In this document: in pieces, positions 27,993 to 58,515 of the stretch
Layout of the letters: every line of letters starts with the position of its first letter
Position numbering within the stretch: the first letter of the stretch is position 1
Made by a program: the position numbers and the translations under genes
DNA from: Escherichia coli
GTDB lineage: Bacteria > Pseudomonadota > Gammaproteobacteria > Enterobacterales > Enterobacteriaceae
Direction: 5' to 3' (one strand)
Assembly: GCF_050920415.1 (NCBI RefSeq)
Contig: NZ_CP169309.1
Length of the DNA stretch: 64,000 nucleotides
The notes under the pieces: generated by a model
What the model was told of the DNA's origin: nothing
Databases searched by the model: none
The model's input: the letters and a program-made list of their open reading frames with translations, nothing else

Positions 27993-28199
27993 AAGGTAAT
28001 TCATGGGTGGTTGAAATACATTCTTGCTTTTCAACCATTCTAAAAACGCATGAATTGCTTCTTCCCCTCCTGACAACTGTGTTACTTTAGAAAAACTTAA
28101 TCCAGAGTTAAGTAATAAAACATAACAAATATAAATAAAACAGTAGAATCATTGATTGCAAGAATGATTTATGGAAAAGATAATATAACGGAGTATGTT

Positions 28200-29102
28200 A
28201 TGGCTAATCTTTATGATTTAAAAAAATTCGACCTCAATTTACTGGTCATATTTGAGTGCATTTATCAACACCTCAGCATTAGCAAAGCAGCAGAATCATT
28301 ATATATAACGCCATCTGCCGTTAGTCAGTCGTTACAACGTTTACGCGTGCAATTTAATGACCCGTTATTCATCCGCTCAGGGAAAGGTATCGCGCCGACT
28401 ACAACAGGGTTAAATCTGCATCACCATCTTGAGAAAAATCTCCGAGGCCTTGAACAAACGATCAATATCGTTAATAAGTCTGAGCTGAAGAAAAATTTTA
28501 TTATCTACGGTCCTCAGCTTATTTCTTGTAGTAATAACAACATGCTAATCCGCTGTCTAAGACAAGATACTTCAATCGATATAGAATGCCATGACATACT
28601 GCTTTCAGCTGAAAACGCTGAAGAATTGTTAGTTCAACGCAAAGCTGACCTGGCAATTACACTGCAACCAGTAATTAGCCGCTCTGTCATCTGCATGCCG
28701 GTACATACTATTCGCAATTCTCTTATATGTAGCAACAAACATCCTCGTATTACCGATACCAGTAACTATGAACAAATTATCGCCGAAGAATTCACCTTGT
28801 TGATATCTAAATCAGCAGGGATTGACGAAATTCAAATGGACATAGATGAACGTTTTATGAACCGTAAAGTTTCATTTCGCAGTTCTTCTTTGTTGACGAT
28901 AATTAATAGTATTTCTGTTACTGACTTATTGGGCATTGTGCCCACCGAACTGTACGATTTACATCGTGATTTTTTGAAGTTACAAGAGATAAAACTGGAA
29001 CGACCACTTCCTACGGTTAAACTTTATATTTCCTATAACAAGGCTTCGTTGAACAACCTTGTCTTCTCACGATTCATAGATCGTTTAAATGATAGCTTCT
29101 GA
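28200..29102 (+). CDS. ybdO: LysR-family transcriptional regulator YbdO
   Basis: 300-aa AT-rich ORF starting MANLYDLKKFDLNLLVIFE with LysR HTH. Confidence 0.88.
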   Translation: MANLYDLKKFDLNLLVIFECIYQHLSISKAAESLYITPSAVSQSLQRLRVQFNDPLFIRSGKGIAPTTTGLNLHHHLEKNLRGLEQTINIVNKSELKKNFIIYGPQLISCSNNNMLIRCLRQDTSIDIECHDILLSAENAEELLVQRKADLAITLQPVISRSVICMPVHTIRNSLICSNKHPRITDTSNYEQIIAEEFTLLISKSAGIDEIQMDIDERFMNRKVSFRSSSLLTIINSISVTDLLGIVPTELYDLHRDFLKLQEIKLERPLPTVKLYISYNKASLNNLVFSRFIDRLNDSF

Positions 29103-29248
29103 TTTATTACCACGGATAAATGTTATATTACGCATCAATTGATTCATTGTGTGAATATAAAATAATGTGCTCTATCTTGCTTCGTTTACCCTATAATTAG
29201 CGGATTCATCTCACAAGTCACCCAGTAACGTTCAGAGAGCGTTTTCAG

Positions 29249-30469
29249 ATGTCTATTTATAAAATCCCTCTTCCGCTGAATATTTTAGAAGCTGCACAGG
29301 AACGTATTACCTGGACACTTAACACCTTGCCCCGTGTTTGCGTTTCTTTTTCGGGGGGTAAAGATTCCGGATTAATGCTGCATCTTACCGCCGAACTTGC
29401 CAGAAAATTGGGAAAAAAAATCTGCGTTTTGTTTATCGACTGGGAAGCACAGTTCTCTTGTACCATCGACTATGTACAGTCGTTACGCGAGTTGTATACC
29501 GACGTTATTGAAGAGTTTTACTGGGTAGCACTCCCACTCAAGACGCAAAATTCCCTTTCACAATACCAACCAGAATGGCAGTGCTGGGAATCTGATGTCG
29601 AATGGGTGCGTCAGCCCCCGCAAGAAGCGATAACCGATCCTGACTTTTTCTCCTTTTACCAGCCAGGCATGACCTTCGAACAATTTGTACGTGAGTTTGC
29701 CGAATGGTTTTCACAAAAACGTCCGGCGGCGATGATGATCGGCATCCGTGCGGATGAGTCCTACAACCGTTTTGTCGCCATCGCCAGTTTAAATAAACAA
29801 CGTTTTGCCGATGATAAGCCCTGGACCACAGCCGCACCAGGCGGTCACTGCTGGTACATTTACCCCATCTACGACTGGAAAGTAGCTGATATCTGGACCT
29901 GGTATGCTAATCATAAATCCCTATGTAACCCATTGTATAATATCATGTATCAGGCAGGCGTTCCCCTGCGTCATATGCGAATTTGCGAACCTTTTGGCCC
30001 GGAGCAACGGCAAGGATTATGGCTCTATCACGTTATCGAACCGGATCGCTGGGCTGCTATGTGCGCACGAGTTAGCGGGGTAAAAAGTGGCGGCATTTAC
30101 GCCGGACATGACAATCATTTTTATGGTCATCGGAAAATCCTCAAACCAGAGCATTTAGACTGGCAAGAGTATGCATTATTGCTGCTTGATAGCATGCCGG
30201 AGAAAACGGCTGAGCATTACCGCAACAAAATTGCCATTTACTTGCATTGGTATCAGAAAAAAGGTATCGAGGTGCCACAGACCCAGGACGGGGACATTGG
30301 CGCGAAAGATATCCCCTCCTGGCGGCGAATTTGCAAGGTGTTACTGAATAACGATTACTGGTGTCGGGCATTATCATTTAGCCCAACCAAAGCGAAGAAT
30401 TATCAGCGTTATAACGAACGGATAAAAGTAAAACGTCAGGAGTGGGGAATACTATGCAACAACAATTAA
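29249..30469 (+). CDS. ybdN: PAPS-reductase-like (ATP pyrophosphatase fold) protein YbdN, IbrA-like
   Basis: 406-aa ORF with SGGKDS P-loop-like motif near the N-terminus; AT-rich; synteny. Confidence 0.88.
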   Translation: MSIYKIPLPLNILEAAQERITWTLNTLPRVCVSFSGGKDSGLMLHLTAELARKLGKKICVLFIDWEAQFSCTIDYVQSLRELYTDVIEEFYWVALPLKTQNSLSQYQPEWQCWESDVEWVRQPPQEAITDPDFFSFYQPGMTFEQFVREFAEWFSQKRPAAMMIGIRADESYNRFVAIASLNKQRFADDKPWTTAAPGGHCWYIYPIYDWKVADIWTWYANHKSLCNPLYNIMYQAGVPLRHMRICEPFGPEQRQGLWLYHVIEPDRWAAMCARVSGVKSGGIYAGHDNHFYGHRKILKPEHLDWQEYALLLLDSMPEKTAEHYRNKIAIYLHWYQKKGIEVPQTQDGDIGAKDIPSWRRICKVLLNNDYWCRALSFSPTKAKNYQRYNERIKVKRQEWGILCNNN

Positions 30470-45070: not shown

Positions 45071-46059
45071 TTTACGTCTCTCGTCGATTAATTATCACCT
45101 GTCTGCTGTTGCTAATAGCTTGTGTGATGGCAAGCGTGTGGGGATTACGCAGCGGTGCCGTCACGCTGGAAACCTCTCAGGTATTTGCCGCGCTGATGGG
45201 TGACGCACCGCGCAGTATGACAATGGTGGTCACCGAATGGCGTTTACCGCGGGTACTAATGGCGCTGTTGATTGGTGCGGCACTGGGCGTCAGCGGCGCG
45301 ATTTTTCAGTCGTTGATGCGTAACCCACTCGGCAGCCCTGACGTAATGGGCTTTAACACCGGAGCGTGGAGCGGCGTGCTGGTGGCGATGGTGCTGTTTG
45401 GTCAGGACCTGACGGCTATCGCGCTGGCAGCAATGGCGGGCGGCATTATCACTTCGCTGCTGGTCTGGCTGCTTGCCTGGCGTAACGGTATCGACACCTT
45501 TCGGTTGATTATTATCGGCATCGGCGTTCGCGCCATGCTGGTGGCCTTTAATACCTGGCTGTTGCTGAAAGCGTCTTTAGAAACGGCGTTAACAGCGGGT
45601 TTGTGGAATGCAGGATCGCTCAATGGCCTGACGTGGGCAAAAACCTCGCCTTCCGCGCCCATCATCATATTGATGCTAATTGCCGCCGCCTTGCTGGTAA
45701 GGCGGATGCGCTTGCTGGAGATGGGCGATGACACCGCGTGTGCGTTAGGCGTCAGCGTCGAACGTTCGCGGCTATTAATGATGCTGGTGGCAGTAGTGCT
45801 TACCGCTGCGGCAACGGCGCTTGCCGGGCCGATTTCCTTTATTGCTTTAGTCGCGCCACACATTGCCCGCCGCATCAGCGGCACCGCTCGCTGGGGTCTA
45901 ACCCAGGCAGCGCTGTGCGGTGCGCTGTTACTGCTGGCAGCCGATCTCTGTGCTCAACAACTGTTTATGCCGTATCAACTTCCGGTTGGCGTCGTTACCG
46001 TCAGCCTCGGCGGTATTTACCTTATCGTCTTGTTAATTCAGGAGTCTCGCAAAAAATGA
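45067..46059 (+). CDS. fepG: Ferric enterobactin ABC transporter permease FepG
   Basis: 330-aa ORF; 4-nt overlap with fepD stop. Confidence 0.93.
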   Translation: MIYVSRRLIITCLLLLIACVMASVWGLRSGAVTLETSQVFAALMGDAPRSMTMVVTEWRLPRVLMALLIGAALGVSGAIFQSLMRNPLGSPDVMGFNTGAWSGVLVAMVLFGQDLTAIALAAMAGGIITSLLVWLLAWRNGIDTFRLIIIGIGVRAMLVAFNTWLLLKASLETALTAGLWNAGSLNGLTWAKTSPSAPIIILMLIAAALLVRRMRLLEMGDDTACALGVSVERSRLLMMLVAVVLTAAATALAGPISFIALVAPHIARRISGTARWGLTQAALCGALLLLAADLCAQQLFMPYQLPVGVVTVSLGGIYLIVLLIQESRKK

Positions 46060-46871
46060 CCGAATCAGTAGCCCGTTTGCGCGGCGAACAGTTAACCCTC
46101 GGATATGGCAAATATACCGTTGCGGAAAATCTGACTGTAGAAATTCCTGATGGTCACTTCACAGCGATTATCGGGCCAAATGGCTGCGGTAAATCCACGT
46201 TACTGCGTACCTTAAGCCGCCTGATGACGCCTGCTCACGGGCATGTCTGGCTGGATGGCGAGCACATTCAACATTACGCCAGTAAAGAGGTCGCACGCCG
46301 GATTGGTTTACTGGCGCAAAACGCCACCACGCCGGGAGATATCACCGTGCAGGAGTTAGTAGCGCGCGGGCGTTACCCGCATCAACCGCTGTTTACCCGC
46401 TGGCGTAAAGAAGATGAAGAAGCGGTAACGAAAGCGATGCAGGCCACAGGAATAACTCATCTGGCAAATCAAAGCGTTGATACCCTCTCCGGTGGGCAAC
46501 GTCAGCGAGCGTGGATCGCGATGGTGCTGGCCCAGGAAACGGCAATTATGCTACTCGACGAACCCACCACCTGGCTGGATATCAGTCATCAGATTGATTT
46601 GCTGGAATTGTTAAGCGAACTGAACCGCGAGAAAGGCTATACCCTGGCGGCGGTACTGCACGATCTTAATCAGGCCTGTCGGTACGCTAGCCATTTGATT
46701 GCATTACGTGAAGGGAAAATTGTCGCTCAAGGAGCACCAAAAGAGATAGTCACTGCTGAACTGATTGAGCGTATTTATGGTTTGCGTTGCATGATCATTG
46801 ACGATCCGGTAGCCGGAACTCCGCTTGTGGTGCCGCTCGGACGAGCGGCACCTTCAACCGCGAAGATTTAA
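46056..46871 (+). CDS. fepC: Ferric enterobactin ABC transporter ATPase FepC
   Basis: 271-aa ORF from MTESVARLRGEQ with Walker A (GPNGCGKST) and ABC signature (LSGGQRQR); 4-nt overlap with fepG. Confidence 0.95.
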   Translation: MTESVARLRGEQLTLGYGKYTVAENLTVEIPDGHFTAIIGPNGCGKSTLLRTLSRLMTPAHGHVWLDGEHIQHYASKEVARRIGLLAQNATTPGDITVQELVARGRYPHQPLFTRWRKEDEEAVTKAMQATGITHLANQSVDTLSGGQRQRAWIAMVLAQETAIMLLDEPTTWLDISHQIDLLELLSELNREKGYTLAAVLHDLNQACRYASHLIALREGKIVAQGAPKEIVTAELIERIYGLRCMIIDDPVAGTPLVVPLGRAAPSTAKI

Positions 46872-48001
46872 ACTAAGTGGTCTGCCATGATGGCATCCTG
46901 TTTTCTGGATGCCATGGCATGGCGCAACAGCACGCTACCACAAGCCACCATACCGCCGATCAACGCAGAAAGGATCACGATAATCGCCTTACCCGGACCG
47001 TCTTTTTTTACCGGTAATGACGGACGCAACTGATATTTAAACGGCGTAAAATTCACATCGTTGACATTTGTTTTTGTTAATTGCTCGACTAGATACTGAC
47101 GATTACGTAATTCACCATTCAGCTCCGCAACGTCAGTGACCGCTTTTTCAATTTCCAGTTTACGTTCAATACCGTCTGCGCCGAGAGAAATAGAAAAGTC
47201 GGGGTCATCTTTAACTGCCTGACCATTGCTATAAATGGGCTTTTTAATTCCTGCCGCGTTGGCAATGTCGAGTGAATAATTGAGGCGCTGAATGTTTGCA
47301 TCAAGTTGGTTTTTCGTTTTAATGCGATCCTGAGCCAGTTTTTCTTTTTCAAACTGGGTTTTGATTTCCAGTTTATTACGGACGTTTTCTAGCGACTCTT
47401 TCACCACCAACGCAGAGATATAATCGATATACCCGCTCAAAACGGTCTGCGCCTCTTCACTGGTTGGCGCGGTGAAACTTAGCGTCCAGGAGGCATACAG
47501 TGACGGTTCATCTTTTTTCTTACTGGCATTGTCATCAACCGCTTTCATTTTTTCGCTCAATGCGACGATAGCGCGATGCAAATCCAGTTCGTCGATTTTC
47601 GCCTCTTTTAATTGGTCCATCACATAAGGTGATGAGCGCAGGTACTCTTCCAGTAAGCTAACCGACTGAAACTTCTTGATAAACAGGTTAAATGCTTCTG
47701 TACGATCAATTTTGATATCCAGATCCAGCACACGAAGCTTAGTGAATGTTTTCTCAAGCGCCTGCCACTGAACAGGTTCTGGAGGCGTGACAACCGCCGC
47801 GCTGGTCCATTTTTGCGGCAGGATGAAAGAGATCAGTAAACCTGCGCAGGCAAACGCAAAAACGACCGCCATGACCGTTTTTTTGGCCCGCCATAAAACT
47901 TCAATTAGATTAAGTAAATCAATTTCATTATTACTGGGCGACGCCAGAGGATACTCGGGAAAATGAGCGTCACTTCCCTGTTTAATATTCAGTGATGACA
48001 T
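46868..48001 (-). CDS. fepE: Polysaccharide co-polymerase (Wzz-like O-antigen chain length regulator) FepE
   Basis: 377-aa ORF from MSSLNIKQGSD with N- and C-terminal TM segments flanking a coiled-coil periplasmic domain. Confidence 0.9.
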   Translation of the reverse strand: MSSLNIKQGSDAHFPEYPLASPSNNEIDLLNLIEVLWRAKKTVMAVVFAFACAGLLISFILPQKWTSAAVVTPPEPVQWQALEKTFTKLRVLDLDIKIDRTEAFNLFIKKFQSVSLLEEYLRSSPYVMDQLKEAKIDELDLHRAIVALSEKMKAVDDNASKKKDEPSLYASWTLSFTAPTSEEAQTVLSGYIDYISALVVKESLENVRNKLEIKTQFEKEKLAQDRIKTKNQLDANIQRLNYSLDIANAAGIKKPIYSNGQAVKDDPDFSISLGADGIERKLEIEKAVTDVAELNGELRNRQYLVEQLTKTNVNDVNFTPFKYQLRPSLPVKKDGPGKAIIVILSALIGGMVACGSVLLRHAMASRKQDAIMADHLV

Positions 48002-48215
48002 GCGGTATAACCTGAAATGGGTCCAATAAGAGTAAATCTCCACGGCCCCCACTTTACCAGTTGGTGAGATTTATCCGAAGCTGAAGTTTGTAAATTCCTC
48101 TCACTGAATGCAACATTCACTCTATTTCAGAGAAATATCCGTTAAATTGATAAATTAAATAAATAATAAACCCATAATCATTTATTGTAATTATGGGTTT
48201 ATAGATAATATAAAT

Positions 48216-51200
48216 TTACTTATTTAGCGCCGCACGAATAATTGGCCCTATTTTTTCAAACGCCATCGGCGAGATAATATCCACATGTGCGCAATCCTGA
48301 CGATAGATATCCAGCTCCGCAATCCATGGTGCCCAGGCCCGTTCGGGAGTCATCCCCTCCTGAAGCGTGCGTTCGGCAACAAACAGCGTCGCTTTTCCAT
48401 CAAACGGAACACTATGGGCAGTGGTCAACAAGCGCACTGCATCAGCGTAGTTGCCTTCAATGGTGGTAAACAGCTCCGTTGAAGTATTTCCCTGCTGTGC
48501 CGCCAGGAAGGCCTCGCGCTCGCGGTTAATCTCCGCCAGCACTTCCGGGTCCAGACCATTAGCCTCTTTTTCCTGCCAGTTTTGCGTTTCTGGCGGCCAG
48601 GTATCCAGCAAGCCAAGAAATGCCACCTGTTCGCCACGGGCACGCAGCCGTGCCGCAATCCCCTGCGCCAGCGTACCGCCCAGCGAATACCCCAGCAGGT
48701 AATAAGGGCCGTGCGGTTGTTGTTCAAGTAACGTTGCCAGATGCGCTTCGCAGACTTCATCCAGGTTTGCCGCGGTCTGCATGGGGCCATGAGGGCGCGG
48801 AGACTGGATGCCAATAATCGACCATTGAGGATCGAGATAACGCGAGAGCACGCTAAACTGCCAGGCAAAACCAGATGCTGGATGGAAACAAAACAGCGTC
48901 GGGCCATTACCTTCACGCAACGGCAGGATGGTTTCAAATCCCATGCGCTGGGTGCTGTCTTCTTCACCATCAATAACCGTTGCCAGTTTGGCGACGGTTG
49001 ACGCGACCATCACCTGCCCCGGCGTCACCTGACGGGCAAACTGTCGACTAAGTTGTGCTGCCAGTTTCATTGCCAGTAGCGAATGACCGCCAAGCGCGAA
49101 GAAATCAGCGTCAGCATCCTGCACGTCACAACCCAGCAACGACGAGAATGCCGCGGCGATAATCGTTTCACTGCCCACTTTCGGCGCACGCCCCGGCACT
49201 TGTGCCTTCAGTTCCGGCAACGGTAAGGCTTTGCGATCCAGCTTACCGTTGGCGCTAAGTGGTAACTGTGGCAGTTGCAGTAGAACCACGGGCACCATAT
49301 GCGGAGGCAATTTTTCGCGAAGCTGCGCCTGCAATGCGCTGGTATCCAGCGGCAGGCCCGATTGCGATACAAAATAGCCCACCAGTTGACGCGCATCCCC
49401 CCCGGTGGCTGCCGCCTGATTAATCACACAAGCGTGGGTAACTGCTTGCTCGACATCCGGCAGCGCCTGCATCACACGATCGATTTCGCCCAGTTCAATC
49501 CGCTGACCACGAATTTTTAGCTGATCATCACTACGCCCGAGATACTCCACCGCGCCGTTATCCAGCCAGCGGGCAACATCTCCGGTACGGTACATCCGTT
49601 CACCTGGCGCGAAAGGATCGGCAATAAAGCGGCTGGCTGTCAGATCGGGTCGTCCAAGATACCCCTGCGCCAGTTGAATACCGGTCAGATAGAGATCGCC
49701 TGCCACACCCGGCGGCACCGGATGCATCATCGCATCGAGAATGCGCAGGCCCGTGTTCCACACCGGGTAGCCAATCGGCACACTGCTGCCGCGTACCGCT
49801 GCAAGTTCAGCACCAAAGGCTGGATACCAGCTCACATCCACCGCTGCTTCCGTCGGGCCATAAAGATTATGTAACGGCGCGCCGGTTAACTGCTGCCATT
49901 CGCGACATAAATCGGCTGGTAAGGCTTCTCCGCTACAGAAAACCTGTTTCAACGTCGCGCAACTCTGGCGAGCGGTTTCCGGCGTCAACGAAGCAACAAA
50001 CGCCGCCAGCATCGACGGTACAAAATGCGTGGTCGTTACGCCATATTCAGCAAAGAATTGCTGCATAGCGAGCGGATCGCGGTGCGCTTCCGGTTCAGCC
50101 ATCACCAGTTTCGCCCCGGCAATAAACGGCCAGAAAAACTCCCACACCGAGACATCAAAACTGCACGGCGTTTTTTGGGCAACAACATCTTCGCCTGTGA
50201 GCGGGTAGTGGTTTTGCATCCATAACAGGCGGTTAACGATAGCCGTCTGCCCGACCATCACCCCTTTCGGCCTGCCGGTGGAACCGGAGGTAAAGATGAT
50301 ATAAGCCGTGTGGTGCGGTTGCGAAAGTTGCAGCGGCGCACTGCCCTGCGGTGTAAGCGGGGCGTTATAGCAAAGACTGGTTAAATTGGGGATATCGCTA
50401 AAGCGCGGCAGTTGATCATCGGTGGTGATTAACAGTGACGGACGCGCATCTTCCAGCATCATTTTCAGGCGATCGTCCGGATAGCCCGTATCCAGCGGTA
50501 GCCAGGCCGCACCTGCTTCAACTATCGCATGTAGCGCCATAGTCAAAAAGACCGAGCGCGGTAGTGCCACCGCTACGCTGTCGCCAGGTTTAACGCCGCG
50601 CTCACGCAGCAGATTCGCCAGCGCCACCACCTGCTCGCGCATTTCCCGATAACTGAACTGGTAACGCACATCTGCCAGTGCCGGAGCATCCGGCGTTTTT
50701 GCCGCCTGTTCTGCCACCAGCGCGCTCAGTGTGGTTTCTGGAATCTCAACCTGAGTGGCGTTGATCTGCGCCAGCTGTGCATACTCTTCTGGCAGCATAA
50801 TATCGACATCGCCGCACAACCGCGCCGGATCCGCGGCAAACTGCACCGTCAGCATTTTCAGCCGTTCAGCATGCTGGATTAGCGTTGGCTCATCGTAACG
50901 CTGTTTATTGGCGAGGATCTCAATACTCAAATCACCGTTTTCATCCGGGAAAAGGGCCAGTTCAAGGTCATTAACCGGACCGGTTGCCAGGGTATGGGTT
51001 TGCGCCTGTACCCCCGGAATATCTAACTGATAATCAAATACTTTAATATTGAGCACCGGACCGAACAGCGGTTCCTCTCCCGCCGCGCGCCCGCTGTCAC
51101 GGACAATTTGTTCGGCATCGTAACGTTGATGACGACGCATTTTTTTCAGTTGTGCCGCTAGTCGGGCTGCCAGTTGCGGCAATGTTTCTTGTGCCTCAAT

Positions 51201-52097
51201 GTGAATACCCAACGGCAACACGTTGAGCACGGGTCCGGTAGCCGTCAGCGCCGCTGAGCCCAGTCGACGCATAAAGATAAATCCGGCGGCGTAGTCCATG
51301 CGGTTGCACAATCGCCCCAGCCACAAAGCCGCCAGCGCAAGGGCTATATCGGTACGCTGCACACCTGAAAGTTGCGTAGCCAACTGGCGGAATTCCCCGC
51401 CGTTAAATTCCAGTTTCAGACGCAAAATATCTGCCGAGGCGCTGCGCCCCGGTAAAGGGGCTGGAGAAAGTGACGCGGGCGGTGGTAGTTGACGACGCTG
51501 TTCCGCCCAGAATGCCGCATCACGCTGCCAGGCTTCGCTTTCGCGGTACTGCTGGTACTCTTCCACTACCTCAGCGAAAGGCGTAAACGGCGAAGCCGGT
51601 GTTGGTTCGCCACACCCCCATGCACAGTAAATGTTGGCGATCTGGCGGGTAATGACCGGGAAACTGAAGCCATCGACCAGCAAATGGTGGTAACGCTGAT
51701 ACCAGTACCAGCGGTTATCTGCCACCTGTATCAGTTGATGAAAAACCAGAGGTTTACCGCTATCGACGCGCAGATCTTGTTGCAAATCCGCCTGCATTAA
51801 TGCCTGCGCAGTACCGTGCGGATCAATGTTGGTTCGCAGGTCGATAATTTCTGGCAGTTCGAACGTCAGCGCATCATCGACCCATTGCCAGACTTCGCCG
51901 TTATCTTCCGTAAAACGCATCCGCAGCGTATCTGCTTGCGCTAATCCGGCAACCACCGCGCGAGCCAGTAATGGCGCATCAACATCTCCGGTTAACTCAA
52001 CGTAATGCGCCACGCTCCAGGCGGAGGGTAAATCCGACAGTTTTTCTGCCATCCAGATGCCGGGCTGTGCGGCAACTAAAGGTAAATGCTGGCTCAT
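48216..52097 (-). CDS. entF: Enterobactin non-ribosomal peptide synthetase EntF (C-A-PCP-TE)
   Basis: 1293-aa ORF from MSQHLPLVAAQPGIWMAEK; HHxxxDG condensation motif, adenylation motifs, GGHSL carrier motif, GYSLGG thioesterase motif. Confidence 0.96.
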   Translation of the reverse strand: MSQHLPLVAAQPGIWMAEKLSDLPSAWSVAHYVELTGDVDAPLLARAVVAGLAQADTLRMRFTEDNGEVWQWVDDALTFELPEIIDLRTNIDPHGTAQALMQADLQQDLRVDSGKPLVFHQLIQVADNRWYWYQRYHHLLVDGFSFPVITRQIANIYCAWGCGEPTPASPFTPFAEVVEEYQQYRESEAWQRDAAFWAEQRRQLPPPASLSPAPLPGRSASADILRLKLEFNGGEFRQLATQLSGVQRTDIALALAALWLGRLCNRMDYAAGFIFMRRLGSAALTATGPVLNVLPLGIHIEAQETLPQLAARLAAQLKKMRRHQRYDAEQIVRDSGRAAGEEPLFGPVLNIKVFDYQLDIPGVQAQTHTLATGPVNDLELALFPDENGDLSIEILANKQRYDEPTLIQHAERLKMLTVQFAADPARLCGDVDIMLPEEYAQLAQINATQVEIPETTLSALVAEQAAKTPDAPALADVRYQFSYREMREQVVALANLLRERGVKPGDSVAVALPRSVFLTMALHAIVEAGAAWLPLDTGYPDDRLKMMLEDARPSLLITTDDQLPRFSDIPNLTSLCYNAPLTPQGSAPLQLSQPHHTAYIIFTSGSTGRPKGVMVGQTAIVNRLLWMQNHYPLTGEDVVAQKTPCSFDVSVWEFFWPFIAGAKLVMAEPEAHRDPLAMQQFFAEYGVTTTHFVPSMLAAFVASLTPETARQSCATLKQVFCSGEALPADLCREWQQLTGAPLHNLYGPTEAAVDVSWYPAFGAELAAVRGSSVPIGYPVWNTGLRILDAMMHPVPPGVAGDLYLTGIQLAQGYLGRPDLTASRFIADPFAPGERMYRTGDVARWLDNGAVEYLGRSDDQLKIRGQRIELGEIDRVMQALPDVEQAVTHACVINQAAATGGDARQLVGYFVSQSGLPLDTSALQAQLREKLPPHMVPVVLLQLPQLPLSANGKLDRKALPLPELKAQVPGRAPKVGSETIIAAAFSSLLGCDVQDADADFFALGGHSLLAMKLAAQLSRQFARQVTPGQVMVASTVAKLATVIDGEEDSTQRMGFETILPLREGNGPTLFCFHPASGFAWQFSVLSRYLDPQWSIIGIQSPRPHGPMQTAANLDEVCEAHLATLLEQQPHGPYYLLGYSLGGTLAQGIAARLRARGEQVAFLGLLDTWPPETQNWQEKEANGLDPEVLAEINREREAFLAAQQGNTSTELFTTIEGNYADAVRLLTTAHSVPFDGKATLFVAERTLQEGMTPERAWAPWIAELDIYRQDCAHVDIISPMAFEKIGPIIRAALNK

Positions 52098-56795: not shown

Positions 56796-56916
56796 TTGAC
56801 AACATCTGGTACGATTCGCCCGCAGCCATCACTGACCACGGGCGAAAGTGTAAAGCAGGTGCCTTACCATCCTGACCTGACAACCGGATATGCGGGGATT
56901 ACTCCCCGCACAACGG

Positions 56917-57069
56917 CTACTTCTTCGGTTCGTAAGCGAGAACAGCCCTGAACTCAATATTACGTTCCTTTACGGTGAACTCACACAGCGAGTCGCCGAC
57001 CAGAAGCGTAAATCCCAGCACTGTCAAACACAGCACTATGACCGCCACAAGGGCATATTTCGTCAGCAT
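56917..57069 (-). CDS. hokE: Hok-family toxin, copy 1 ([50 protein letters not shown])
   Basis: 50-aa single-TM peptide; in this copy the upstream mok-like frame is fused in-frame (ORF 56917-57213) through a 1-nt length difference. Confidence 0.85.
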
Positions 57070-57418
57070 GTTTATATTGCCTCCATGCGAAGAAGGGACT
57101 ACCATCCAAATTGTCTGGTTTGGAGTGGCGGCCCCAGGGTTGATAGAAATATCTCCTGGGGCTTCATCTTTCCAGACCTCAGAGTTAACCTGAAACCGGA
57201 AAGCTTCAGGCACCCGCCGTTATCTTACCCTTCCTTAGCAAAATGGCTGTTTATTTATACAGTAAATCCTGTTCCGGACTTTTCATTAGTATTATCGCCC
57301 ATGCCAGTTAAACGACATCGCCCGCAGCCATCACTGACCACGGGCGAAAATGTAAAGCAGGTGCCTTACCACCCTGAACTGACAACCGGATATGCGGGGA
57401 TTACTCCCCGCACAACGG

Positions 57419-57571
57419 CTACTTCTTCGGTTCGTAAGCGAGAACAGCCCTGAACTCAATATTATGTTCCTTTACGGTGAACTCACACAGCGAGTCGCCG
57501 ACCAGAAGCGTAAATCCCAGCACTGTCAAACACAGCACTATGACCGCCACAAGGGCATATTTCGTCAGCAT
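57419..57571 (-). CDS. hokE: Hok-family toxin, copy 2 (..[18 protein letters not shown])
   Basis: 50-aa Hok ORF; one substitution (R35H) relative to copy 1. Confidence 0.85.
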
Positions 57572-57716
57572 GTTTATATTGCCTCCATGCGAAGAAGGGA
57601 CTACCATCCGAGTTGTTGAGGTTCGGAGTGGCAGCCCCAGGGTTGATAGAAATATCTCCTGGGGCTTCATCTTTCCAGACCTCAGAGTAAACCTGAAACC
57701 GGAAAGCTTCAGGCAC
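57483..57716 (-). CDS. mok-like overlapping reading frame, copy 2
   Basis: 77-codon [12 protein letters not shown].. starting 145 nt upstream of hok and ending inside it in a different frame; mok-like arrangement. Confidence 0.45.
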
Positions 57717-57921
57717 CCGCCGTTATCTTACCCTTCCTTAGCAAAATGGCTGTTTATTTATACAGTGAGTCCTGTTTCGGACTTCTGTTGGCAAAACTGA
57801 TCATTGCTCTTAAAACGACATCGCCCGCAGCCATCACTGACCGCGGGCGAAAGTGTAAAGCAGGTGCCTTACCATCCTGACCTGACAACCGGATATGCGG
57901 GGATTACTCCCCGCACAACGG

Positions 57922-58074
57922 CTACTTCTTCGGTTCGTAAGCGAGAACAGCCTTAAACTCAATATTACGTTCCTTCACCGTAAACTCACACAGCGAGTCT
58001 CCGACCAGAACCGTAAATCCCAGCACCGTCAAACACAGCACTATGACTGCCACAAGGGCATATTTCGTCAGCAT
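57922..58074 (-). CDS. hokE: Hok-family toxin, copy 3 (..[32 protein letters not shown]), adjacent to ybdK
   Basis: 50-aa Hok ORF closest to ybdK. Confidence 0.88.
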
Positions 58075-58219
58075 GTTTATATTGCCTCCATGCGAAGAAG
58101 GGACTACCATCCAAATTGTTTGGGTTTGGAGTGGCAGCCCCAGGGTTGATAGAAATATCTCCTGGGGCTTCATCTTTCCAGACCTCAGAGTAAACCTGAA
58201 ACCGGAAAGCTTCAGGCAC
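57986..58219 (-). CDS. mok-like overlapping reading frame, copy 3
   Basis: 77-codon ORF paralogous to 57483-57716. Confidence 0.45.
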
Positions 58220-58515
58220 CCGCCGTTATCTTACCCTTCCTCAACAAAATAGCTGTTTATTTATACAGTTAGTCTTATTTCGGACTTCTCACTACGCATC
58301 AGATCAACCGAAACTAAACCAATTTTTCCTTCGCCCCTCAATCGTCAAAATTCTCCGCCGCCAGCCAGCTCTGCCATAACTTGGCACATTGCAAAAGTAG
58401 CCAAATTGCTTCAGTAGCAATCAGTTCACCATCACCAAAAAAAGAAACATTCCAGAACTTCCGCATCTCTCCCGGCCGCTCCCACTTCTATACTCAAATG
58501 AAAACGCCAACATAA

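Follow-up and report, generated by a model that had tools for sequence, protein, structure and literature searches.

The fepE locus

The window that we analysed is a stretch of 64,000 nucleotides from Escherichia coli that contains a complete ent/fep cluster. Within this cluster, fepE, also named wzz(fepE), occupies positions 46868–48001 on the minus strand, flanked by fepC (46056–46871, plus strand) on one side and entF (48216–52097, minus strand) on the other. The initial annotation had put fepE at this place in the enterobactin cluster without giving its strand, and the open reading frame bears the placement out. The frame is uninterrupted over 1134 nt (377 codons and a TAA stop), running from an ATG at 48001–47999 to a TAA that is the complement of 46868–46870. 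Its extent agrees with the translation, the NCBIfam model NF007699, the structure 9SKI and the RefSeq annotation. Read from the sequence, the stop codons of the convergent genes fepC and fepE share a strandless TTAA palindrome (46868–46871), a 4-bp overlap that is also present in K-12.

A mechanical list of open reading frames offered a longer frame of 394 amino acids that starts at a GTG at 48052. We rejected it in favor of the ATG at 48001, the start from which the N-terminus is conserved and on which profile and annotation agree. Among 33 orthologues, the N-terminal pattern MSSLN or MS..(I/M) is kept from residue 1; position 1 of the NCBIfam profile pairs with residue 1 of FepE; and a conserved CAGG lies 9 nt 5' of the ATG. 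The RefSeq annotation of the nearly identical strain MFDS1022581 (6 mismatches in 60.4 kb) gives the same start coordinates, and K-12 fepE (b0587) has the same extent.

The encoded protein differs from K-12 FepE (377 amino acids, encoded at the same locus; PDB 9SKI–9SKL, 3B8M, 3B8N and 4E2L) by 13 conservative substitutions, leaving 96.6% amino acid identity. All of them fall in variable alignment columns (K-12 residue first: D16E, S34E, E81A, S85T, T170A, T197A, V256I, A311T, H312N, S326R, G356S, Y361H and M371I). We infer that, in its own strain, the allele acts as the published FepE does.

Family assignment

The initial annotation had proposed that FepE is a Wzz-type polysaccharide co-polymerase rather than a transport component, and the searches of Pfam, NCBIfam and the PDB agree with this proposal, as they matched co-polymerases only. 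The Pfam Wzz family (PF02706) aligns with E = 5.8e-19 and 68.6 bits (cut-off 25.5), pairing FepE residues 25–122 with profile positions 1–89 of 91, a region that spans the first transmembrane helix and reaches into the periplasmic domain. The Wzz(fepE) equivalog NF007699 reaches 622.7 bits (cut-off 300; E = 1.8e-187) over the full profile, positions 1–368. The models for WzzB and WzzE score 125.5 and 89.9 bits, under their respective cut-offs of 267 and 332. In the PDB, the cryo-EM structure of E. coli FepE (9SKI) matches residues 1–377 at ~97% identity (E = 2.3e-238), followed by 3B8M, 3B8N and 4E2L; the solved structures matched overall are those of FepE, WzzB and WzzE. A total of 3160 homologues were found at E ≤ 1e-5, and among the 120 of these that were listed, every source-given name denotes an O-antigen length regulator. 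RefSeq names the gene wzz(fepE) in MFDS1022581, and the current K-12 annotation reads ‘polysaccharide co-polymerase family protein FepE’.

No transport family in Pfam or NCBIfam, ABC-transport accessory families included, matched FepE at E ≤ 1, and no transporter was found among its PDB sequence matches. FepE has no cytoplasmic tyrosine-kinase domain, a lack that sets PCP-1 apart from PCP-2a (Wzc): the kinase model aligns only with residues 18–60, at 18.2 bits (cut-off 1248), and the C-terminus consists of the 18 residues past the second transmembrane helix.

Architecture of FepE

Hydropathy (Kyte-Doolittle, 19-residue window) reveals two hydrophobic segments in FepE and no others. The first, V43–L61 (47819–47875, minus strand; maximum 2.73), lies inside the Pfam Wzz match and corresponds to an AlphaFold2 helix at residues 40–60. 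The second, A339–L359 (46925–46987, minus strand; maximum 2.48), contains the pair G349-G350, and here AlphaFold2 begins a helix at residue 336; a weak Pfam GNVR match covers residues 335–362 in the same region. The ~275 residues in between form the periplasmic domain (residues 64–338; 46988–47812, minus strand), which AlphaFold2 models as a four-stranded alpha/beta base (strands 65–72, 152–156, 172–178 and 322–330), a 70-residue helix (181–250) and two return helices (271–287 and 296–310). The long central helix (47252–47461, minus strand), modeled with a block pLDDT of mostly 83–93, is alpha-6 of the PCP-1 fold.

A Foldseek search with this model placed the periplasmic-domain crystal structures 3B8M, 3B8N and 4E2L at the top, with E values of ~1e-32 (1.2e-32 for 3B8M) and a target TM score of 0.78. 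Immediately before the second transmembrane helix, a regular expression located a proline-rich motif, P327-S-L-P-V-K-K-D-G-P-G-K338 (46988–47023, minus strand), which runs into this helix. Across 33 orthologues of 48–96% identity, S328, P330, G335 and G349 are invariant, and P327, K332, K333 and P336 are conserved in at least 90%. A proline-rich motif before the second transmembrane helix and a glycine pair within it belong to the consensus of PCP-1 proteins. In the cryo-EM analysis of FepE, alpha-6 is long and the periplasmic domain stands ~100 Å high, and Q80 and E212 are named as an inter-subunit pair (PMC13161533); both residues are present in the protein encoded here.

Two terminal transmembrane helices enclosing a periplasmic domain had been anticipated by the initial annotation, and hydropathy and AlphaFold2 support this part of the description. 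Its further term ‘coiled-coil’ is loose, as the domain between the helices combines an alpha/beta base with a long helical hairpin that packs on neighboring protomers.

A probable separate unit between entF and fepC

The GC content of fepE is 44.9%, as compared to 53–60% in its neighbors. Just past the entF stop, a terminator scan detected an intrinsic-terminator-like hairpin (48166–48202, minus strand) with a 15-bp stem, a U-rich tail and a folding energy of −15.9 kcal/mol. Hairpin and tail are retained, with compensatory changes in the stem, in most of 20 syntenic loci from at least four genera. Farther along the gap, alignment across genera alone uncovered a predicted promoter-like element, TTCGGA-17 nt-TGgTAAAGT with an extended −10 (48051–48079, minus strand), that ends 49 nt before the ATG and would put the start of transcription ~40 nt 5' of this codon. 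Its position and sequence are kept in the gaps of Escherichia, Citrobacter and Salmonella (a Salmonella example reads TGTTAGAAT), and the Shine-Dalgarno sequence of fepE is kept across genera as well. The region 5' of fepE has a GC content of 32%, and the −35 element is weak. A simple sigma-70 consensus scan returned no more sites than it did in shuffled sequences and missed the conserved element.

We also searched for Fur boxes. In the whole window, the 19-bp consensus with at most three mismatches occurs only at the fepD/entS site. The three known ent control regions contain best matches with 3–6 mismatches; the best match in the entF-fepE gap has 8 mismatches in 19 positions. We dropped direct Fur control of the fepE promoter because this is the commonest value among shuffled sequences.

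The position of fepE next to enterobactin genes is lineage-specific. Among 71 species loci, the orthologue adjoins entF or fepC in 26 and has neither an ent nor a fep neighbor in 45. It is sited outside the ent cluster in Enterobacter, Buttiauxella, Kosakonia and others, and the fepE-fepC synteny is absent from most genera. In E. hormaechei, for example, the equivalog (552 bits) adjoins a sugar ABC transporter and ygeA-lysR-lysA. An independent pangenome study also found part of the enterobactin clusters to be without fepE. In Salmonella enterica, the Wzz(fepE) protein is 74–75% identical, and its gene likewise lies between entF and fepC with the same layout of terminator and promoter-like element; there, ~80 bp separate fepE from fepC, in contrast to the overlapping stops seen here. 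Taken together, these features indicate that fepE is probably a separate unit of lower GC content lodged between the ends of entF and fepC, with its own promoter past the entF terminator. The earlier view that the function of fepE is unrelated to its neighbors thus gains support from composition, from the terminator and promoter-like element, from a gap devoid of a Fur box and from synteny that is not conserved.

Proposed mechanism in O-antigen synthesis

We conclude with high confidence that FepE is Wzz(fepE), a polysaccharide co-polymerase of class 1b that works in Wzx/Wzy-dependent O-antigen synthesis and has no direct part in ferric-enterobactin import. Each protomer is held in the inner membrane by its N- and C-terminal helices, and its periplasmic portion comprises the alpha/beta base and a helical hairpin of roughly 100 Å. 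In the published structures of E. coli FepE, which is about 97% identical, nine protomers form a closed barrel (PMC13161533). Wzy, the polymerase, is proposed to occupy the membrane chamber of this barrel, from where the undecaprenyl-linked O-antigen would extend into the periplasmic lumen. The large volume of the lumen would lead to a very long modal length of >80 repeat units, following the published model that combines the nonamer with lumen volume (PMC13161533). The ring would then open, and the chain would be passed to the WaaL ligase. Ferric enterobactin is imported by FepA, FepB and FepCDG.

Related systems share much of this design. WzzB (cld/rol; PCP-1a; PDB 6RBG) resembles FepE in fold, topology and its Wzy-dependent pathway, with remote sequence similarity, but forms an octamer whose lumen is ~3.6 times smaller, and yields 16–25 repeat units as opposed to >80 for FepE (PMC13161533). 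In MFDS1022581, wzzB adjoins the O-antigen cluster, whereas fepE resides in the ent cluster. WzzE, the chain-length regulator of the enterobacterial common antigen (ECA; PDB 8BHW and 4WL1), has the same PCP-1 architecture and acts on ECA together with WzyE, whereas FepE acts on O-antigen; deletion of fepE in a wzzE mutant left ECA chain regulation without detectable change. Wzz(pHS-2) of Shigella flexneri is plasmid-borne and, by its literature class, a PCP-1b protein with a very long modal length, as is Wzz(fepE) (PMC12004945). The role of Wzz(fepE) in very long O-antigen was first shown in Salmonella (Murray, Attridge and Morona 2003, as cited in later work), and Salmonella fepE gave the longest chains among the fepE variants tested in a later study (PMC9022517). 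In Salmonella, LPS of the very long mode affects resistance to bile and complement as well as the interaction with macrophages.

Contribution of fepE to LPS

The nearly identical strain MFDS1022581 carries wzx and wzy of the O2/O50 family, that is, a Wzx/Wzy-dependent O2/O50-type O-antigen cluster, and wzzB. FepE therefore has a pathway to act on. In this cluster, an acyltransferase gene is fragmented and an ISAs1 remnant is present. Judged from gene content, an intact fepE alongside wzzB and a Wzy-dependent O2/O50-type cluster should give this strain a capacity for bimodal LPS that includes a very long mode.

How far this capacity is used bears on the statement in the initial annotation that the intactness of fepE matters for the LPS phenotype. 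The gene is indeed intact; the effect holds conditionally. The literature describes the native LPS of E. coli as short-chain, and O25b LPS was lengthened by plasmid-borne E. coli fepE in a wzzB mutant (PMC9022517). Yet 5417 of 5426 complete E. coli genomes carry fepE, mostly at full length, so the chromosomal gene may contribute little under laboratory conditions and is perhaps weakly expressed. One could go further and suppose that Wzz(fepE) is genuine and intact but nearly silent in this strain, owing to low expression or to WzzB out-competing it for Wzy. Besides the need for a plasmid and a wzzB mutant, this idea draws on an E. coli fepE reporter fusion that was down-regulated about 7- to 8-fold in an sdiA-dependent manner, on the low-GC upstream region with its weak −35 element, and on the scarcity of the very long mode relative to the long mode in wild-type Salmonella. 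The dN/dS of fepE relative to K-12 is 0.125, which is 2–20 times that of most neighboring transport genes and counts for this idea, yet this value still indicates purifying selection. With the near-universal presence of the gene and a promoter-like element and Shine-Dalgarno sequence kept across genera on the other side of the balance, we regard near-silence as possible but rather unlikely.

Is fepE tied to iron?

Very long chains in Salmonella are reported to rise under low iron, so a regulatory tie between fepE and its neighbors is conceivable. In its stronger form, this thought would hold that fepE is functionally coupled to iron starvation, and that its lodging in the ent cluster of the Escherichia-Citrobacter-Salmonella branch is no accident. 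Coupling could arise if transcription from the Fur-controlled fes promoter ran in part through the entF terminator, or from an interplay of convergent transcription with fepC via the common TTAA stops. It could also arise if FepE influenced enterobactin uptake through the envelope, independently of O-antigen. If true, it would explain the phenotype of a K-12 fepE insertion mutant from 1987 that, as cited in PMC6329577, was defective in the use of enterobactin. We consider such coupling improbable.

The same mutant supports the original reading of FepE as a component that transports ferric enterobactin across the inner membrane together with FepCDG. A purely O-antigen-related role leaves the phenotype unexplained because K-12 lacks O-antigen. 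The location of fepE within the enterobactin cluster, with a stop codon overlapping that of fepC, speaks for the same reading, as does a genetic-interaction screen that clusters fepE with fepBCDG, and several recent papers still class fepE as an uptake gene. Against it, all family matches of FepE are to co-polymerases and none is to a transport family, most species loci place the orthologue apart from ent genes, and some enterobactin clusters lack fepE altogether. The gene differs from its neighbors in GC content, is set off by a terminator and lacks a Fur box, and K-12 FepE itself is now annotated as a co-polymerase. We therefore hold a transport function to be very improbable. The 1987 phenotype could be indirect, for instance if the transposon drove antisense transcription into fepC, which is convergent and overlaps with fepE. 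Our literature search found no paper that re-tests this phenotype, nor one stating that fepE is dispensable for transport.

FepCDG is a binding-protein-dependent importer and not a polysaccharide exporter. The notion that FepE is a KpsE-like (PCP-3) adaptor joining FepCDG to the periplasm, which appeals to the inclusion of KpsE, the partner of the KpsMT ABC transporter, in the co-polymerase superfamily, to the ABC transporter operon next to fepE and to a weak Foldseek match of the FepE model with KpsE in 8TSH (E = 2.7e-5), was rejected as scarcely credible because the fold match is weak (TM 0.24–0.30, as compared to 0.78 at E = 1e-32 for FepE/Wzz structures), FepE exceeds the Wzz(fepE) equivalog cut-off, the neighborhood with fepC is missing in most genera and FepCDG does not export polysaccharide. 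KpsE and Wzc (PCP-2a) are distant superfamily kin of FepE by fold search, with TM scores of about 0.2–0.3; KpsE pairs with an ABC exporter and Wzc has a cytoplasmic tyrosine kinase, a domain that FepE lacks.

The assignment of FepE as an O-antigen length regulator, to which we return, dates from 2003 and has entered the RefSeq annotation, and the current understanding of the protein is unchanged. In practice the finding has modest value. The old name continues to mislead, with fepE counted among the enterobactin uptake genes in papers from 2016 and 2022 and assigned to the siderophore cluster by genome-mining tools. What our analysis adds is the separate composition of fepE, its conserved terminator and promoter-like element, a gap without a Fur box and its lineage-specific synteny.

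Divergence of the surrounding region

The allele studied here is part of an unusually divergent segment of ~36 kb around fepE. The piece from fepC to entF is 90–95% identical to 5398 of the 5417 E. coli records. Separately, we observed repeat copies with a period of ~503 bp in the hokE region.

FepE is a Wzz-type O-antigen length regulator

The fepE reading frame occupies 46868-48001 on the minus strand, between fepC (46056-46871, plus) and entF (48216-52097, minus), in agreement with the initial annotation, which had placed it inside the enterobactin cluster and named no strand. It runs without interruption for 1134 nt (377 codons) from an ATG at 48001 to a TAA (complement of 46868-46870), and its stop codon and that of fepC share the palindrome TTAA at 46868-46871. 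The flanking genes follow the annotation of the near-identical strain MFDS1022581 (6 base differences in 60.4 kb), in which the ent/fep cluster around fepE is complete. A longer frame from GTG 48052, proposed by an automatic ORF list, was rejected in favor of ATG 48001 on four results: the N-terminus is kept from residue 1 across 33 orthologues, position 1 of the NCBIfam profile aligns with residue 1, RefSeq and K-12 annotation use the same start, and the CAGG found 9 nt upstream is conserved across genera.

Domain searches assign the protein to a single family. Pfam returned the Wzz chain-length-determinant domain (E 5.8e-19) and no other domain above threshold; GNVR gave a sub-threshold match across the second membrane helix. 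The curated NCBIfam equivalog 'LPS O-antigen length regulator Wzz(fepE)' scored 622.7 bits (cut-off 300), and the WzzB and WzzE models matched well under their own cut-offs. Among solved structures, the top match was full-length E. coli FepE (9SKI; E 2.3e-238, residues 1-377), followed by the FepE periplasmic-domain crystals 3B8M, 3B8N and 4E2L, and then WzzB and WzzE. Homologues at E ≤ 1e-5 number 3160; the 120 listed all come from Escherichia, Citrobacter and Salmonella, and all source-given names among them are O-antigen length regulator. The initial annotation had called FepE a Wzz-type co-polymerase, to be refuted by placement in an ABC-transport accessory family; since no transport family matched in the Pfam, NCBIfam or solved-structure searches, that check came out negative and its reading is supported. 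The role has long been established (Murray et al. 2003; Tocilj et al. 2008), and current names (RefSeq gene name wzz(fepE), K-12 product name) already carry it.

Hydropathy picks out V43-L61 and A339-L359 as the only hydrophobic segments. An AlphaFold2 model (33 orthologue sequences at 48-96% identity; mean pLDDT 75) places one membrane helix at residues 40-60 and another starting at 336, which flank an alpha/beta base of four strands, an unbroken 70-residue helix (181-250), a loop (251-270) and two return helices. In Foldseek, this model retrieved the FepE crystals first (E ~1e-32, TM 0.78 on target), WzzE and WzzB next, and Wzc and KpsE weakly. Across the family, the proline-rich residues P327-K338 and the paired glycines G349-G350 of the second membrane helix are conserved. 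The N- and C-terminal membrane helices of the earlier description stand. Its periplasmic domain is an alpha/beta base with a long helical hairpin packing on neighboring protomers, for which 'coiled-coil' is a loose yet acceptable term.

FepE belongs to the PCP-1b co-polymerases of the Wzx/Wzy pathway (PMC12004945). By cryo-EM, E. coli FepE forms a closed nonamer, and the volume of its periplasmic barrel is ~3.6 times that of the WzzB octamer; the authors propose that O-antigen grows in the lumen until full, at >80 repeat units, whereupon the ring opens and releases the chain (PMC13161533). Plasmid-borne E. coli fepE in a wzzB mutant lengthens O25b LPS (PMC9022517), and the very long O-antigen mode is lost from fepE mutants of Salmonella.

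The gene is intact. All 13 substitutions relative to K-12 fall at orthologue-variable columns, and at T85 and N312 the window residue is that of all nine sequences in one alignment, K-12 being the odd one out. The dN/dS of 0.125 against K-12, compared with 0.005 to 0.065 for the adjoining transport genes, indicates purifying selection, though looser than on those genes.

O-antigen substrate and expression

In MFDS1022581, the galF-gnd interval (NZ_CP169399.1 1940196-1955765, outside the window) encodes rfbBDAC, a wzx and a wzy of the O2/O50 family, and glycosyltransferases; wzzB adjoins ugd. Judged from its genes, this strain has the Wzy-dependent pathway that FepE needs. Though intact, the gene might be silent: the LPS that E. 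coli makes natively is described as having short chains, the long ones having come from plasmid-borne fepE in a wzzB mutant (PMC9022517), and an E. coli fepE reporter fusion in the literature showed ~7- to 8-fold sdiA-dependent negative regulation. On these grounds fepE may contribute little under ordinary conditions, a reading that we consider less likely than not.

In the same O-antigen cluster an acyltransferase gene is broken into two pieces, both pseudogenes. The cluster also carries a transposase pseudogene of ISAs1 and, before gnd, a pair of neighboring sulfatase-like genes. The strain may have lost O-acetylation or some other side modification.

fepE is largely separate from its ent/fep neighbors

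The further claim that the function of FepE is unrelated to its neighbors was largely borne out by four independent results. Firstly, fepE has a GC content of 44.9% and the gap upstream 32%; every flanking ent/fep gene lies at 53-60%. Secondly, a terminator-like hairpin (48202..48166, minus; 15-bp stem, U-rich tail, -15.9 kcal/mol) directly follows the entF stop. Hairpin and tail recur there in most of 20 syntenic loci from Escherichia, Citrobacter, Salmonella and Intestinirhabdus, with compensatory stem changes (for example CCCATAAT/ATTATGGG, GCCATAAT/ATTATGGC, TCCATAAT/ATTATGGA and CCCTTAATAA/TTATTAAGGG), so that structure is conserved and sequence is not. A conserved promoter-like element (TTCGGA-17 nt-TGnTA.A.T) lies downstream of the hairpin and ends 49 nt before the fepE ATG. 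The conserved hairpin structure argues that entF and fepE are probably separate transcription units, although database operon models join the two. Thirdly, the entF-fepE gap contains no Fur box, its best match having 8/19 mismatches, which is also the commonest value among shuffled sequences; best matches in the three bidirectional control regions of the ent genes have 3-6.

Fourthly, among 71 fepE loci (one genome per species), entF and/or fepC adjoin fepE in 26, from Escherichia, Citrobacter, Salmonella, Intestinirhabdus, Pseudocitrobacter and one Enterobacter sp. Neither is adjacent in the other 45 (Enterobacter, Lelliottia, Trabulsiella, Buttiauxella, Kosakonia, Cedecea and others), 38 of which are flanked on each side by 3 kb of sequence or more. 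The E. hormaechei fepE, at 552 bits, is still above the Wzz(fepE) equivalog cut-off but has a sugar ABC transporter on one side and ygeA-lysR-lysA-galR on the other. Independently, a pangenome paper reports some enterobactin clusters without fepE.

In Pseudocitrobacter vendiensis the entF-fepE gap (L069 6417-8000) measures 1583 bp, versus about 220-350 bp in other syntenic loci, which points to an insertion between the two genes. In Citrobacter koseri NCTC10786, fes-entF-fepE-fepC (L072 2395-12010) gives fragmentary protein matches throughout (FepE 96 aa, EntF 564 aa, Fes 286 aa, FepC 172 aa), which suggests a decayed enterobactin cluster.

The 1987 phenotype and iron

According to the passage citing it in PMC6329577, the name fepE stems from a 1987 insertion mutant of K-12, an O-antigen-less strain, that was unable to use enterobactin; a literature search for a re-test of this phenotype found none. 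fepE and fepC are convergent, overlapping genes, and the fepE 3' end holds a short GC-rich hairpin with a T-run behind it (46883-46895, plus), oriented as a terminator of the fepDGC transcript would be; from this we infer that the insertion could plausibly have acted indirectly on fepC. The hairpin may be a chance occurrence; terminator-like sites in the region are no more numerous than in shuffles. Salmonella very long chains are reported to increase under low iron, so a regulatory link between fepE and its iron neighbors is still conceivable.

Sequence divergence around fepE

Measured per kb, identity to K-12 is 96-99% over 1-27000, 80-86% at 28001-30000 (citR/ybdN) and 91-97% from there to the window end (64000). 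The fepC-fepE-entF piece is 90-95% identical to 5398 of 5417 E. coli records (only 18 at ≥95%), and the mrdA-rlpA piece at least 95% to all. This pattern suggests that a segment of 36 kb or more, comprising the whole ent cluster with its flanks, was imported from a divergent Escherichia lineage.

Within Escherichia, fepE is far more variable than its neighbors. The E. coli SCPM-O-B-8794 allele (L009:192-1328) has 74-78% DNA and 76% protein identity, beside fepC/G/D at ~91% and 97-100%; in E. albertii, FepE is 87% identical versus 99% for FepC. This looks like allelic replacement, typical of surface-polysaccharide genes.

At 56808-58294, a ~503-bp unit stands in three tandem copies (93-96% mutual identity), each with a hokE toxin gene in the MFDS1022581 annotation, whereas K-12 has one hokE/sokE beside IS186 at this site.
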